From: Cenarchaeum sp.
GTDB lineage: Archaea > Thermoproteota > Nitrososphaeria > Nitrososphaerales > Nitrosopumilaceae
DNA length: 64,000 bases
Assembly: GCA_963692915.1 (NCBI GenBank)
Contig: OY843584.1
Span: 704,001-768,000, forward strand
Reading direction: 5' to 3'
Numbering within the stretch: the stretch's first letter is position 1; the number at the start of each line of letters is the position of its first letter. A program made the translations under genes and the position numbers. Below are positions 11,864-64,000 of the stretch, piece after piece. The notes below the pieces were generated by a model, which was not told where the DNA came from, did no database searches, and worked only from the letters and a program-made list of their open reading frames with translations.

Positions 11864-12879
11864 CTCTGGTCTAGATACACGGGAGCGCCCGTATTTATGG
11901 ATACGAGCATTGCCTCCATCACGTGCGCAAGCGAGGACGGGTTTGGTGGCGGTGGCGGGTGGACGGCCCATGACTGCCACGCTCCCTGTGAGTGGAGACC
12001 GGCAGGATCGATGCCTGTCTCTAGGCCGACGAGCATGGACGGCAGGTGGCGCATGAGGCCATGGCACCCGAGTTCACCATCCGGATCGCCGTATAGGGTG
12101 GCAGGGTGGACGTGCTCCTCCCCAGGACGGCACATGGGGCAATAGTCCGGACCGGCCATGCCATCATTGTATCGCACGGACATCTTGCCCGAGGAGAGGT
12201 CGGCGTGGTTGAGGCCCATGCCTGTCGCCGTGAGCACGATTTCAGAGTTGGCAAACTCGCGATCGATCGGAAATTGGATGCAGTCCCCAGAGTAGGCCGA
12301 GCCTATGGAGGCAAATGCTGTCCGGTCGCCCTCAAAGCGCATCATTAGCGAGACCGAGTCTCCAAGCCTGCGCTCCTCGCCTTCCTGATCGTCATCATCC
12401 TCCCCACGCGGCGAGCTCGCAAAGACGGCCTGTGGTGCCGAGCCGAGCGCAAACATTGCAATGTCAGCGGACAGCGCACACACTGAACGCATGTCAGGGT
12501 GTGGGCCCATGACAGTCGTGGATATGGCCGCCGAGTCGCGCACGTGGTTGCGCGCGTGGCGCATCACGGGGCTATAGCGCGCAATGTGGCTGCCGCAGCC
12601 GAGCCGCAGGCCGGCCTTTTGCGCGGCCTTTTCTAGGCCCTCCCACTCGTTAGACGCGCAAGAGTTGACGTCATAGACCATGACATGAACGCCGGCGCGC
12701 AAGAGGTCCATGGCGAGTCCTGCGCACGAGTCGCCCACATGTCCAATCACGGCAGCACCGCCCTTGCCTGCGACCTCCAGAATCGCATCTACTGTGGGCT
12801 CGACCGTGCGCGCATATAGTGCCACGGGGAGCGAAGGCCCCTCTAGGTGATCCGGCCACCCGGCAAAGACGAGTGCCAC
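11860..12879 (-). CDS. Highly diverged Gfo/Idh/MocA-like oxidoreductase (possibly inactive)
   Basis: Residual similarity only (LLRAGVHVMV, HIARYSP, D.V.LMMRFEG, VMEAMLVSINTGAPVYL); no GxGxxG or EKP motif. Confidence 0.5.
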   Translation of the reverse strand: MALVFAGWPDHLEGPSLPVALYARTVEPTVDAILEVAGKGGAAVIGHVGDSCAGLAMDLLRAGVHVMVYDVNSCASNEWEGLEKAAQKAGLRLGCGSHIARYSPVMRHARNHVRDSAAISTTVMGPHPDMRSVCALSADIAMFALGSAPQAVFASSPRGEDDDDQEGEERRLGDSVSLMMRFEGDRTAFASIGSAYSGDCIQFPIDREFANSEIVLTATGMGLNHADLSSGKMSVRYNDGMAGPDYCPMCRPGEEHVHPATLYGDPDGELGCHGLMRHLPSMLVGLETGIDPAGLHSQGAWQSWAVHPPPPPNPSSLAHVMEAMLVSINTGAPVYLDQR

Positions 12880-23905: not shown

Positions 23906-24442
23906 ATGAGGGCAGAGCTCGTAGACGGCAGGGTTGTCGTGTGGAATCCCGATGATGCAGCCCGCCTCTTTGAGTCCGGCTATTACGGAAAGCCAATAGG
24001 AATTCCAAAGCCAAAGCCCGGCGAGATCAACGTTCCGCTAATACTCGACCTCTTTGAGGCGCGCTATCTCGAGGAGCGCGGACTGATAGCAGTGTACGAG
24101 GGCGCGCGGCGCGTCTCGCGCAAGTCCCTCCTCGGGGCGTGCAGGGACAACCATGCCGGATTTGACACAAAGTATGCAGTCTATACCGACTTTAGGGACA
24201 AGGGATACATTGTTACGACTGGCATAAAGTTTGGGTGTGACTTTGCAGTCTATGAGCGCGGGCCGGGAATAGACCATGCGCCATACCTTGTCCAGGCCCA
24301 TGCGCGCGGTGATGCCATAACGGCGACTGGAACGGTCCTCGCGGGCCGGCTTGCGACGACTGTGCGAAAGCAGTTCATACTGGCAATGCCGGACAGGCGC
24401 GGCGGTGTTGCGCTAGTTGCGCTTGACTGGTGGAAGGCCTAG
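23906..24442 (+). CDS. endA: tRNA-splicing endonuclease, catalytic (alpha) subunit
   Basis: GIKFGCDFAVY, GIDHAPY, RLATTVRK with Tyr/His/Lys triad; YGKPIGIPKPK loop. Confidence 0.93.
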   Translation: MRAELVDGRVVVWNPDDAARLFESGYYGKPIGIPKPKPGEINVPLILDLFEARYLEERGLIAVYEGARRVSRKSLLGACRDNHAGFDTKYAVYTDFRDKGYIVTTGIKFGCDFAVYERGPGIDHAPYLVQAHARGDAITATGTVLAGRLATTVRKQFILAMPDRRGGVALVALDWWKA

Positions 24443-59952: not shown

Positions 59953-60714
59953 ATGGCGACAGCGACGGCCGTGGTTCCCGAGGCAGCCCTCTTAGTCGAG
60001 GAGGGTGCCGAACGCACGCTCGCAGTTGCCGACGTGCACGTTGGCTTTGAGGCCATGATGGCCGTCAGGGGAGTGCGCATGAAAAGCGAAGGATCTGCAC
60101 GTGAGATGGCCGAGGCGATTGCGCGCGTTGCCACTAGCGCACGCGCCACACGGATTGCGCTCCTAGGCGACACAAAGGCCGGCACGTCGCGCATAGCAAG
60201 CCAGGAGTGGGACACCGTGCCGGCGTTCCTCTCGCGCCTCGCCGATGCGGCCGAGACTGTGGTCATACCCGGCAACCACGATGCCGGAATTGCGCATCTC
60301 CTGCCTGATGGCGTCTCAATGTCTGCACCATCCGGAATTGTCATCGGTGACACACTCCTTACGCATGGCCACGCCATGCCGTCCGGAAACCTTGGCGGCG
60401 TCTCACGAATTGTCATGGGACATGCGCACCCTGTGGTTCGTGACGCATCATCGGTTCTTGGTGGGCAGCGCGTCTGGGCATCAATGGTCATCGAGCGCGA
60501 CTGCGTCTTTGCATCATACAGGGGAACCCTCGAGGTAACCATAGTGCCATCGTTTAACCGCTATATCGCCGCACCACCGGGGCGCGCAACAGGGCGCGCG
60601 CGCTCACCGATACTCGAGCGCGCGAGGCGCGGGGTCATCTCGGCCAAGGTCATCACGCTTGACGGTGCCATACTTGACGATGGGCCATCAGCGCTCGACG
60701 GTGTCATCTGGTAG
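59953..60714 (+). CDS. Metallophosphoesterase
   Basis: ADVHVG, LGD, GNHD, THGH, GHAHP, PSFN. Confidence 0.88.
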   Translation: MATATAVVPEAALLVEEGAERTLAVADVHVGFEAMMAVRGVRMKSEGSAREMAEAIARVATSARATRIALLGDTKAGTSRIASQEWDTVPAFLSRLADAAETVVIPGNHDAGIAHLLPDGVSMSAPSGIVIGDTLLTHGHAMPSGNLGGVSRIVMGHAHPVVRDASSVLGGQRVWASMVIERDCVFASYRGTLEVTIVPSFNRYIAAPPGRATGRARSPILERARRGVISAKVITLDGAILDDGPSALDGVIW

Positions 60715-63700
60715 AGCGTCATATGGCTCTAGCGCGTGGCGTGTCGTCCTGTTTGAACGGAGCCACTCTAGCGTCTTAACAAACGACTCGGCAAGCTCGG
60801 GGGTTGTAAGAACCGGTATGCCAAGCTCTGTTGCCTTGCGTCGTATCTGGTATTCGTCATAGAGCATGCCGACATATTTTTCCATCGTTGATGTGCTAGG
60901 GATGTTTATGATAAAGCTGATCTTGCGCTCATAAAGAAGATCCGCTATGTTGGGCTTGCGGTCAGGCTCGCTTATCTTGTGAACAGTTCCGACGTCACTC
61001 ATGCGTCCTCGCAAAAACTCGGCTGTGTGCTCTGTTGCGAGTATGTCAAATCCAAGATCTCCAAGGCGTGCGATGGTGCGCATGAGGCGCTCACGGTTGT
61101 GCTCGCCACCGATCGTGACTAGAGCCGTGCCCGAGGCAGGCAGGTTGTATCCCACCGACGTGAGGGCCTTTGAGAGTGCATCATAAAAGCTCGTTCCAAA
61201 GCATGCGGCCTCTCCAGTGGACTGCATCTCGACGCCGAGCACGATGTCGGCCCCATCAAGCTGCATAAAGGAGAACTGCGGGGCCTTTATGCCGTGTGTG
61301 TTGGCCGGCACGCCTGCGCCGGGGAGCGACTCGGGCACGCGGTTTCCGAGTATCGCCGAGGCGGCCATCTCGATCAGGTTTGTTCTTGTGAGCTTTGAGA
61401 CAAACGGCATTGAGCGCGACGCGCGGATGTTGAGCTCGATGACATAGGGCACTCCCTCGTGGATAAGGAACTGGAGGTTAAACGGGCCGCGCACATTAAA
61501 CTCTGGAACGATGCTGCGCGTATAGCCTTCGATCGCCTCGATCGTGCTGGATCCGAGGCGCCATGGCGGTATGCACATCATCGCATCACCCGAGTGGACT
61601 CCCGCACTGTCAATGTGCTCGACTATGGCGCCGATAAAGACGTGCTCGCCATCGCACACGCCATCAACGTCGACCTCCAGAGAGTTGAGCATGAACTTGG
61701 ATATGACAACAGGGTGGTCCGGTGAGAGTGTCGTGGCGTCGCGTATATAGGAGCTCAGCTCACTCTGTGACCAAACCACCCTCATCGCCGCGCCGCTAAG
61801 CACGTACGATGGCCGGACAATTACAGGGTACCCGACGCGCTGCGCGAACGTGCGCGCCTCGTCCATGCTCGAGAACGCCTGCCAGGGCGGCTGCTTTATG
61901 TGGAGCGAGTCAAGTATGCCGCTAAACGTCGAGCGGTTCTCGGCCCTGTCAATGTCAGTTGCCGCTGTGCCGAGTATGTGCACGCCGCGCTCGGCGAGGC
62001 TTGGTGTCAGGTTGTTTGCGGTCTGTCCACCGACGCAGGTGACCGTGCCTCGCGGTGACTCAAAGTCCGATATGTCAAGTATTCGCTCAAGCGTGAGCTC
62101 CTCAAAGTAGAGCCGGTTGCAGATGTCATAGTCAGTCGACACTGTTTCAGGGTTGCAGTTGACCAGGGCGATCTCGGTGTCTGGCTGCGCAAGTCCCCAA
62201 ACCATGTTTACCGTGCCCCAGTCAAACTCGACGCTACTGCCAATGCGGTAGGGGCCGGCACCCAATATGACGATACTGGAGGAATTGCGCGGCGACTCTA
62301 TGTCATCCGAGTCGCCACCGTACGTCATGTAGAGATAGTTAGTCTGGGCAGGCCATTCGGCGGCAAGCGTGTCTATCTGCTTTACGCACGGCACAATTCC
62401 CATGCGCTTTCTCTCCTCGCGGATGCTGTCAGGAGACGAGTTTTGAGCGCGTGCGACTTGCGCATCAGAGAAGCCCAGACGCTTTGCGCGCCGGAGGGAC
62501 TTGGCCTCAAGCGAGTCGCGTCCCAGGCCATCTGCAACGCCGACGATATTGCGCACCTTTTCTACAAACCACTCGTCAATGTATGACAGGCGCGTTATCT
62601 TTTCAGTGTCCATTCCTGCACTGATTGCGCGCGCTACCCAGTAGAGTATCATGTCATCGGGCCTGCGCAGGGCGTGCTCTATGGCCTCCTCATCAGCAGA
62701 CGTCACGTCGTTGCGGTTTAAGACGAGTCCGTCAAGTCCCGTGTCAAGCATGCGTATGGACTTTTGGAGTGCCTCCTCAAACGTACGCCCTATGCCCATG
62801 ACCTCGCCGACTGACTTCATTGTCGGTCCCAAGTTACGCTCGGCGAGCTCAAACTTTGCAAAGTCCCAGCGCGGATGTTTGCAGACGACATAGTCAAGCG
62901 AGGGCTCAAAACACGCAGTAGTCGACTTTGTTATGCGGTTTGCAAGCTCGGGTAGTGAGTATCCAAGGCCGATCTTGGCTGACATGTACGCCAAGGGGTA
63001 TCCCGTGGCCTTGCTCGCAAGAGCCGATGAGCGCGACAGGCGCGGGTTTACCTCAATGGCCGCATGTCGACCCGTACGCGGATCGAGGGCAAACTGGATG
63101 TTGCACTCGCCGATGATCCCCACATGCGACGTTGCTCTCAGTGACGCAGACCGGAGCGTGTGATACTCAGTGTTGTCTATGGTCTGCGATGGGGCAACTA
63201 CAATGTTGTCACCAGTGTGAACTCGCATCGAGAGGACATTCTCCATGTTGCACACGATGACGCTGTTCTTAAGGGAGTCTCGCATGACCTCGTACTCTAT
63301 CTGCTTCCAGTCCCCGACGTACTCCTCTATGAGAACCTGCCCGACGAGGCTTGCGGCCATCCCACGACCCACGATCTCGTGGAGCTCGATCTCGTTGCGT
63401 GCCACACCGCCGCCCTTGCCGCCAAGCGTGTACGCCACACGCACGATAACGGGATAGCCGATCTCGGCGGCGGCCTCGTGCGCTGCCTCAAACGTCGTGA
63501 CCGTGTGGCTGCGCAACATGGGCACGCCACACTCGCGCATCGACTCCTTGAAGAGGCGTCGATCCTCGGTTCGGCGTATCCCGTCGACCTGCGTGCCAAG
63601 GACGCGAACCGAGTACTTTGAGAGCACGCCGGACTCGTCGAGGCCAACGCCACAGTTGAGCGACGTCTGGCCGCCGTAGGCGAGCATGAGCGCATCAGGC

Positions 63701-63965
63701 CTCTCGGACTCGATTATTGACGTCACATACTCGGCGTTGACCGGAAGGAGGTACACGCGATCCGCAAAGCGCGTGTCAGTCTGTATGGTCGCCACGTTTG
63801 GGTTAACAAGGACGCTCTTTACGCCCTCTTCCCTGATCGCCTTTAGGCACTGGCTTCCGGAGTAGTCGAATTGGCGGCCGTTTTGCGGCTCTCGCCGGCT
63901 TCTCCGATCTTTATTGCCCCGCTTCCGAGGACCAGTATCTTACGTGGCGACTCGCGCCTAGCCAG
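60688..63965 (-). CDS. carB: Carbamoyl-phosphate synthase large chain, split as exon1 63891-63965 + exon2 60688-63870; CTG start
   Basis: KILVLGSGAIKIGEAGE | FDYSGSQC..NPNVATIQTD; HTGD, NPRLSRSSALASKATGYP, IGSSVEFD, RPSYVLSG, RASRS; joined frame gives 1085 aa. Confidence 0.95.
63871..63890 (-). other. Putative 20-nt BHB-type intron in carB
   Basis: mRNA GGCG-AG^A-GCCG(CAAAA)CGGC-CGCC-AA^U; removal restores the frame and the conserved motif. Confidence 0.8.
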
Positions 63966-64000
63966 GCGTTACCTCCCCCATAAGGCGCGAGAGCTCGTCA
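63958..64000 (-). CDS. carA: 3' end of an upstream gene, probably carbamoyl-phosphate synthase small chain (partial)
   Basis: ...DELSRLMGEVTPG* overlapping the carB start; identity inferred from position only. Confidence 0.55.
   Translation of the reverse strand, partial: DELSRLMGEVTPG

Follow-up and report, generated by a model that had tools for sequence, protein, structure and literature searches.

A bulge-helix-bulge (BHB) intron in the pre-mRNA of cbf5 in Crenarchaeota was reportedly described by Watanabe in 2002. Yokobori (2009, PMC2738675) likewise treats the BHB intron of crenarchaeal cbf5 pre-mRNA, and a table of that paper puts the number of cbf5 introns at zero in both Cenarchaeum symbiosum and Nitrosopumilus maritimus. 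In Haloferax volcanii, the mRNA of HVO_1309 has a BHB intron in its 5′ UTR (Schwarz 2020, PMC7714728). A passage of this 2020 paper names, besides its own 5′-UTR case, only the intron of cbf5 mRNA, which lies in the coding region, as a BHB intron reported in archaeal messengers.

Here, we describe, within carB of a Cenarchaeum genome, the gene for the carbamoyl-phosphate synthetase large subunit, a 20-nt insert that is real, ancient and probably spliced by EndA. Like the intron of cbf5, it is short, lies inside a coding frame, has a BHB-type fold and occurs in a lineage with hetero-oligomeric EndA. In both cases, the pattern of gain or loss among relatives is patchy, and annotation wrongly records a frameshift in the gene. 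The two introns are nonetheless unrelated. The product of cbf5 is an RNA-modification enzyme (pseudouridine synthase) of Crenarchaeota, whereas that of carB is a metabolic enzyme of the ammonia-oxidiser order; and splicing of cbf5 has been shown by experiment, whereas we infer that of carB. With the BHB introns of archaeal pre-tRNAs, the carB intron shares the 4-bp central helix, the 3-nt bulge, the cut positions and, presumably, the use of EndA and RtcB. It differs from them in that its host is a messenger, its helix partners are codons constrained by the protein, and there is no tRNA body. HVO_1309 resembles carB in that an mRNA serves as substrate of the splicing endonuclease, but its intron is part of an untranslated leader and interrupts no frame, and its EndA is of a different type from that of the carB host. 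We found no description of a carB intron in the full-text literature, a search that had subscription journals outside its scope, so that a prior mention is possible. The carB intron appears to be undescribed, a new member of a kind already known from cbf5, and it would be the second coding-region BHB intron reported in Archaea.

Anatomy of the interrupted carB gene

The window, by which we mean the whole stretch of 64,000 nucleotides that was analysed, belongs to a genome assembled as one contig of 1.64 Mb and 99.86% complete. The preliminary description of this DNA had proposed that a 20-nt insert splits the KIGEAGE/FDYSG motif of carB, that the unspliced frame stops at a TAA (63843-63845), that removal of exactly these 20 nt yields an intact CarB, and that gene callers would truncate the gene. 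The coordinates bear out the first three of these points, and the ORF list fits the fourth. On the minus strand, the order of exon, insert and exon is AAG ATC GGA GAA GCC GGC GAG / AGCCGCAAAACGGCCGCCAA / TTC GAC TAC TCC GGA, with the insert (63890-63871) falling between GEAGE and FDYSG (Table 1). When the insert is retained, the frame of exon 1 reads ...KIGEAGESRKTAANSTTPEASA*, and the TAA is codon 41 counted from the CTG at 63965. The frame of exon 2, which from 63870 reads FDYSGSQCLKAIREEG..., is open as far as 60688. Joining 63965-63891 to 63870-60688 produces 1085 codons and a single terminal stop, the length of 1085 aa presupposing the CTG start. The junction then reads GAIKIGEAGEFDYSGSQC, and the tryptic peptide predicted to cross it is IGEAGEFDYSGSQCLK. 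In the mechanical ORF list, carB appears only as a truncated frame of 1035 aa, as would be expected of an ordinary gene caller.

Profile matches place the interruption near the N-terminus of the protein. Exon 2 aligns with TIGR01369 (CPSase II large subunit) over profile positions 25-1051 of 1052, with a score of 1337 bits; precisely the N-terminal ~24 positions are absent from it. The exon 1 peptide matches PF25596 (CPSase_L_D1, the pre-ATP-grasp domain) at positions 3-20 with an E-value of 0.0015, a match that stays below the cut-off because the peptide is short. Given the parts of the two profiles that they cover, the two pieces are therefore complementary. Exon 1 is also collinear with intronless orthologues.

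Table 1. Features of the carB locus and the EndA gene in the window (positions are those of the window)
Feature	Position	Strand	Details
EndA paralog	23906..24442	+	178 aa; PF02778 and PF01974, TIGR00324; PF01974 match at contig positions 728161-728406
carB exon 2	60688..63870	-	1060 codons and stop; begins TTC GAC TAC (FDYSG...)
Complete structured element	63857..63907	-	Outer helix, central helix, both splice-site loops and inner hairpin, from the minimum-energy fold and RNAalifold
Putative carB intron	63871..63890	-	20 nt; in order, A (third nucleotide of the bulge), hairpin GCCG-CAAAA-CGGC, CGCC (3′ strand of the central helix) and AA, which opens the 3′ bulge; relatives have homologous inserts here; covariation
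carB exon 1	63891..63965	-	25 codons, from CTG 63965-63963 to GAG 63893-63891; peptide LARRESPRKILVLGSGAIKIGEAGE
5′ strand of central helix, GGCG	63893..63896	-	Inside exon 1 codons GGC GAG; pairs with 63876-63873 in the minimum-energy fold
carA 3′ end	63958..64000	-	366 aa in full; TAG 63960-63958; 8-nt overlap with the carB start
GGAGG, Shine-Dalgarno-like	63972..63976	-	6 nt upstream of the carB CTG, within the carA 3′ end

Recurrence and conserved structure of the insert

Inserts are found at this same position in many relatives of the organism. An insert lies between GEAGE and FDYSG in 25 of 30 relatives' loci, with lengths of 17 nt (1 locus), 20 nt (6), 21 nt (14), 22 nt (2), 26 nt (1) and 30 nt (1); the other five have none. 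We also analysed 401 genomes, an even sample of the class in which the tallies include five genomes flagged as unpublished (G250, G158, G341, G300, G378). The pattern GARGCNGGNGAR-N{12,42}-TTYGAYTAYTCNGG is matched by 230 of them, and a reversed control pattern by none. Another 94 have the uninterrupted motif. The remaining 77 match neither and are mostly of other orders; in these, carB was not found with that query or the motif is different. By family, the insert is present in 150 of 223 genomes of the organism's own family, 69 of 78 in f15, 4 of 4 in f4, 3 of 11 in f10 and 1 of 9 in f18, which belongs to another order. Among readable named loci, 55 of 77 have it, including those of Cenarchaeum sp., Ca. 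Nitrosopumilus salarius BD31 (22 nt), Ca. Nitrosotenuis chungbukensis MY2 (21 nt), Nitrosopumilus sp. b1 and two Ca. Nitrosotalea (20 nt in Ca. Nitrosotalea sp. TS); it is absent from Ca. Nitrosopumilus limneticus and from most Nitrosopelagicus records. Within the organism's own genome, a covariance model built on the core of the intron matches carB only (E 9.5e-10, the next match having E 8.55); contrary to the idea of a mobile element, the intron is not a dispersed repeat. Rfam 15 covariance models gave no match at E up to 1 between 63600 and 64000.

The lengths and contents of these inserts bear on whether they are translated. Overall, they range from 17 to 32 nt and include all three classes modulo 3. 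The hallmark of a programmed frameshift, a single length class modulo 3, is not seen: the 56 unique inserts, of 17, 20, 21, 22, 23, 26 and 30 nt, fall into three classes. Every unique insert divisible by three (29 of 29) contains an in-frame stop, and the step from 21 to 22 nt between species of a genus comes from one extra A in the loop. Only removal of the insert, or a ribosomal hop across it, would be indifferent to such change, and we take it from this pattern that the insert is not decoded.

In the minimum-energy fold of 86 nt around the insert, GGCG (63896-63893) pairs with CGCC (63876-63873) to give a 4-bp central helix, next to which lie a 3-nt bulge, AGA (63892-63890), and the hairpin GCCG-CAAAA-CGGC (63889-63877). 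The exons pair with one another as UCGGAG.AG.C with G.CU.CUCCGG (63907-63898 with 63867-63857), a helix that is broken by mismatches. The preliminary description had drawn the same central helix and hairpin, and its view that the outer exon-exon pairing is interrupted, making the motif a relaxed one, agrees with both the minimum-energy fold and the consensus. Its two opposite 3-nt bulges fared less evenly. The 5′ bulge AGA holds, but the 3′ bulge AAU does not, as the consensus has a loop of 5 nt (AAUUC) unpaired on the 3′ side versus 1 nt on the 5′ side, leaving the 3′ splice site without a clean 3-nt bulge. Since the strict 3′ bulge (hBHBh′ form) is lacking and the outer helix is interrupted, the motif is classed as a relaxed form. 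The fold energy of the single sequence is ordinary (z = -1.24; 18 of 200 shuffles at least as stable), and the significance of the structure rests instead on comparative data.

These data come from 42 distinct aligned sequences and 18 proposed pairs, with slid partners and 500 column shuffles as controls. In the 42 sequences, 94.3% of cells are paired, versus 23.5-55.2% when the partners are slid by 1-3 columns, and none of the 500 shuffles equals the observed pairing or covariation score. Double-sided changes occur in four of the five inner-helix pairs. The switches there are between UA (23 sequences) and CG (17), between CG (31) and UA (11), and between GC (33) and AU (6), and one pair of the central helix is CG in 40 sequences and UA in 2. 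The central helix, whose GGCG/CGCC is perfect in the window, pairs in 95.2% of cells across the 42 sequences; at its outermost position, 8 of the 42 lack a pair, as do 10 of 45 in a larger set. The covariation result was the same in a set of 47 sequences that includes 10 of family f15, in which the hairpins are longer (up to 7 bp). RNAalifold, working from the alignment of the 42 sequences only, recovered the same three helices.

The neighbourhood of the predicted cut sites is conserved as well. Between the central helix and the covarying inner helix, the 5′ bulge is A-R-A (A-A-U in 1 of 47 sequences), and the 3-nt spacing on this side is invariant. Alignment columns 37 (A) and 67 (T), which lie at the cut positions, are invariant in the 42 sequences. 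In each bulge, archaeal EndA leaves two nucleotides on the near side of its cut. Cutting two nucleotides past either strand of the central helix leads to an in-frame GAR/TTY junction in 42 of 42 sequences, and the layout of the excised form is identical to that of the 94 uninterrupted genes. The covariation indicates that a BHB-type structure is kept here under selection.

The outer helix presents a different case, with double-sided changes in none of its nine pairs. It lacks covariation because its letters are codons, and its support therefore comes from a contrast at synonymous sites. As a control, the same stretch of 40 nt was compared among 120 distinct loci, of which 95 have the insert and 25 lack it. 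At the paired synonymous sites, GGA is used in 92 of 95 loci with the insert and in 0 of 25 without; GGC in 93 of 95 and 2 of 25, the 2 GGT cases being offset by CAC on the partner strand; GAC in 91 of 95 and 2 of 25; TAC in 93 of 95 and 5 of 25; and TCC in 89 of 95 and 2 of 25. Only a few bases from these, unpaired synonymous sites of the intron-bearing loci are free (GCC 54, GCA 38; GAG 33, GAA 62; TTC 57, TTT 38). Near-fixation of the synonymous sites that take part in pairing is thus confined to loci with the insert.

Splicing machinery and rival explanations

The insert has the shape of a tRNA intron and recurs at the same spot with compensating changes, and it is therefore very probably cut out of the mRNA. 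We put the probability that 63871-63890 is an archaeal BHB intron of carB mRNA, cut by EndA and joined by RtcB, at about 0.88. In the mechanism we propose, exon GGC-G of the pre-mRNA would pair with CGCC at the 3′ end of the intron to form the 4-bp central helix, and the intron hairpin would stack on it. The 5′ cut would sit in the 3-nt bulge (AG^A), and the 3′ cut (AA^U) would fall two nucleotides beyond the central helix, where the interrupted exon-exon helix closes a loop. A two-subunit EndA would cut both sites, and RtcB would ligate the exons to give ...GGC GAG/UUC GAC... Splicing would then be the sole route to the full 1085-aa CarB in the cell. The central claim of the preliminary description, that carB mRNA contains a relaxed BHB intron with each cut placed behind the second nucleotide of its bulge, finds strong support in the recurrence of the insert, its length classes and in-frame stops, the covariation, the codon fixation, the presence of EndA and RtcB and the precise loss in many relatives. 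We infer EndA cleavage, RtcB ligation and splicing in this organism; the gene anatomy, the covariation, the genes for the enzymes and the in-frame product are observed in the genomes themselves.

Both presumed enzymes are encoded in the genome. EndA is represented by two paralogs (178 and 207 aa) that both contain PF02778 and PF01974, and the 178-aa paralog, presumed to be the cutting enzyme, is in the same window as carB, not adjoining it. The match to RtcB has an E-value of 8e-170. Of the 46 tRNA genes, 10 have an intron according to ARAGORN. Among these ten, whose predicted boundaries are too imprecise for a check of the cut rule, only tRNA-Ile(GAU), with 4/4 central pairs, and tRNA-Ser(CGA), with 3/4, fit it at shift 0. 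The tRNA-Ile(GAU) intron of this genome, as placed by ARAGORN at position 37/38, follows the same rule as carB. Thaumarchaeota are described as having an alpha2-beta2 EndA (PMC4090602), and from the literature the two paralogs would be expected to form such an enzyme. The two-subunit type is reported to accept relaxed motifs (PMC5829648, PMC4090602). The frayed outermost central pair and the relaxed 3′ site of carB would fit a two-subunit enzyme of broad specificity.

How else might the interruption be explained? A broken gene or an assembly artefact would agree with the truncated 1035-aa frame of the mechanical ORF call. The locus was matched in 6 public runs from 3 studies, none of them on record as RNA, and contigs of 4 of these runs, one of them possibly the origin of the assembly itself, were aligned. 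Contigs from X1, X2 and X6, covering the three studies, span the 20 nt without a gap, and the comparison of the 4 runs with the locus reported neither an indel nor a joint. Each of the genus's 5 genomes also has the identical 20 nt. Together, these contigs and genomes exclude an assembly artefact, which the preliminary description had named as a point to check. It had also raised the possibility of a second, intact carB, and a search of the genome found none: carB is single-copy, and two further matches are weak ATP-grasp matches only. A broken gene, moreover, would hardly keep exon 2 open for 1060 codons with 1337 bits against TIGR01369, or retain the interruption in 230 sampled genomes with changes that preserve its structure. 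The contigs of three studies, the recurrence in 230 genomes and the covariation refute a pseudogene or assembly artefact, to which we assign a negligible probability. Almost nothing speaks for a second possibility, that the insert is translated by frameshifting or stop read-through, adding ~7 residues to CarB, apart from the presence of a hairpin that could stimulate frameshifting. Close relatives would need +1 and -1 shifts and read-through in turn, given the insert lengths and the stops in 29 of 29 inserts; there is no conserved slippery site; and the extra residues would hit the invariant GEAGE/FDYSG motif. Such recoding is improbable in the extreme.

Two further readings share with EndA splicing a protein that lacks the insert. 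In translational bypass, the insert would stay in the mRNA, and ribosomes would jump over 17-32 nt, from take-off at GAR to landing at TTY. The known example is phage T4 gene 60, where a 50-nt gap is bypassed with the aid of matched take-off and landing codons and an adjacent stop. As in gene 60, the carB frame contains a short non-coding gap with a hairpin at its start; the hairpin is stable and begins right after the would-be take-off codon, where it could be a signal. Bypass, like excision, would also be indifferent to insert length and internal stops. The matched codons and adjacent stop of gene 60 are, however, absent at carB: the codon before TTY is CAA, CAG, TAA, AAA, AAG, CAT or AAT, never GAR, and AGY, not a stop, directly follows the take-off codon. 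Nor does bypass explain the pairing of exon GGCG with the 3′ end of the insert, the constant 5′ spacing of 3 nt, the unchanging A and U where the cuts fall or the constrained exon 2 codons GAC TAC TCC, and we consider it highly implausible. It is also conceivable that the insert is removed from the RNA by a nuclease and ligase, or another activity, other than EndA and RtcB, that would recognise the hairpin, given that the 3′ site lies outside a canonical 3-nt bulge. Against this, the conserved geometry is that of EndA (a helix of 4 bp, a 5′ bulge of 3 nt and symmetric cuts two nucleotides past the helix). Both EndA subunits and RtcB are encoded in the genome, and the two-subunit type of EndA is the one reported to accept relaxed motifs. 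We regard removal by a different enzyme as very unlikely.

Evolutionary history and consequences for carB

The history of the trait was traced on a quick FastTree gene tree of ~220 residues from 128 distinct exon-2 fragments, which left out loci with <600 nt of exon 2, duplicates and metagenome contigs. On this tree, the trait changes 11 times, and a model with a single gain has 14 losses, the 11-14 events being an upper-leaning estimate. Every intronless gene has the exact GEAGE/FDYSG junction. This indicates an old carB intron, one that the majority of families in the ammonia-oxidiser order have in common and that was precisely lost several times. Many independent precise losses imply that the intron is dispensable, which argues against an essential regulatory role. 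An indispensable role in regulation seems unlikely, and the intron is most simply seen as a constitutive passenger, not the switch that the preliminary description had offered as a possibility. One can nevertheless imagine that the share of transcripts spliced by EndA and RtcB sets the output of CarB relative to CarA, which is co-transcribed and translationally coupled, as a checkpoint in place since the ancestor of the ammonia oxidisers. The argument would be that a translating ribosome melts the fold needed for intron removal, while unspliced mRNA ends in a stop, so that the spliced share determines how much CarB is made. We think this improbable; if true, the entry into pyrimidine and arginine synthesis would be tied to tRNA-processing capacity.

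Might the joined form be visible in public data? A scan of public metagenome contigs for the joined motif returned 27 contigs, in 26 of which the junction is readable. Judged by the exon-2 peptide (FDYSGSQA...) and weak DNA similarity, 18 of the 26 are other lineages; the other 8 read FDYSGSQC, and 7 of these were taken as ammonia-oxidiser-like, contig L158 being left out (GC 0.73). One of them, Ga0126318_10386934 (L163), has 9 mismatches in 1232 positions (99.3% identity) to the intron-bearing genome G373 of family f15, and the single gap in the alignment is exactly the 32-nt insert of G373. The next relatives of L163 are all 26-32 nt longer over the same span. As a hint of splicing, this is indirect: L163 may represent a spliced transcript copied into cDNA, or a locus that lost its intron precisely and very recently. 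Another joined contig, L148, is 91-93% identical to genomes of genus g39 that either carry or lack the intron, so close relatives do differ in its presence, and L163 may accordingly be an intronless strain. The genomes nearest to L148 are truly intronless. For joined contigs L172 and L167, the nearest genomes are only 91% and 79% identical, respectively, and all have longer spans. Among proteins of 49-158 aa, a search for the joined N-terminus with the first 90 aa of exon 2 as query found nothing above 81% identity and hence no fragment from this lineage.

The carB intron sits in a core metabolic gene of ammonia-oxidising archaea, which are among the most abundant microbial groups on Earth. 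In intron-bearing genomes (230 of the 401 sampled), ordinary gene callers will give carB as truncated, frameshifted or with an internal stop. Such miscalls distort metabolic reconstructions, for example by suggesting a false auxotrophy for pyrimidines or arginine. The inserts also form a natural series, with lengths of 17-32 nt, relaxed central helices and precise losses, which would provide a system for the study of EndA recognition in the absence of a tRNA body. The same series would suit work on splicing versus coupled translation and on precise intron loss in Archaea.

Finally, we note that the start codon of carB in this genome is CTG. Downstream of the stop at 63971-63969, the frame has no ATG, GTG or TTG before it reaches the KILVLGSG motif of carB. 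A homologous CTG, with a GGAGG-type motif upstream, is found in relatives.

Presence and absence of the carB intron within one genus

Closely related genomes of genus g39 differ in the presence of the carB intron, as seen across 1.2 kb of carA-carB, with G546, G598 and G559 on one side and G561, G527, G271 and G323 on the other. All are 88–93% identical over this span to a single query, the uninterrupted metagenome contig L148. The span measures 1232 nt in the intronless genomes versus 1250–1253 nt in the intron-bearing ones, and the exon letters GGCGAR/GACTACTCC are retained where the intron is missing. These intronless carB genes look like very recent, precise intron losses. Such pairs, with and without the intron, would be suited to testing whether it has any effect.

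Among the other metagenome contigs with an uninterrupted junction, L147 and L166 meet in-frame stops about 12–28 codons into exon 2. These two may represent frameshifted assemblies or decayed copies.

The apparent start codon of carB

Translation of carB appears to begin at a CTG. No in-frame ATG, GTG or TTG is found from the upstream stop (63971-63969) to the conserved KILVLGSG of carB. The CTG occupies the same position as the TTG or ATG of other relatives (LPKNE.../MPKNE...), lies 6 nt downstream of a GGAGG, and gives an 8-nt overlap with the carA stop. CUG would be an unusual initiation codon in archaea. A homologous CTG is seen in eight relatives belonging to other genera (L015, L016, L023, L025, L050, L051, L053 and L054). 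In six of them, the frame from the preceding stop down to the CTG is likewise free of ATG, GTG and TTG. In L023, an in-frame TTG lies upstream; in L054, the stretch read upstream of the CTG holds no stop.

Endonuclease genes, tRNA-Tyr and a bulge variant

The genome encodes two paralogs of the tRNA-intron endonuclease EndA, and one tRNA-Tyr gene of the window is predicted to be interrupted. This gene is absent from the default tRNA scan of the window, and a bulge-helix-bulge check did not confirm the intron boundaries predicted by ARAGORN.

Coordinates of carB-related and tRNA-splicing features
Feature	Window	Genome (G000)	Strand	Remark
EndA paralog	23906-24442		+	~40 kb from carB
Other EndA paralog		287094-287345		
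tRNA-Tyr(GTA)	12040-12229	716040-716229	+	93-nt intron; ARAGORN, intron search on
Apparent carB start codon, CTG	63963-63965		minus	

Across 47 aligned sequences, the first nucleotide of the carB intron is A, with L181 (genome G163, family f15) as the sole exception. There it is U, giving the bulge AAU, and the inner helix is 7 bp.
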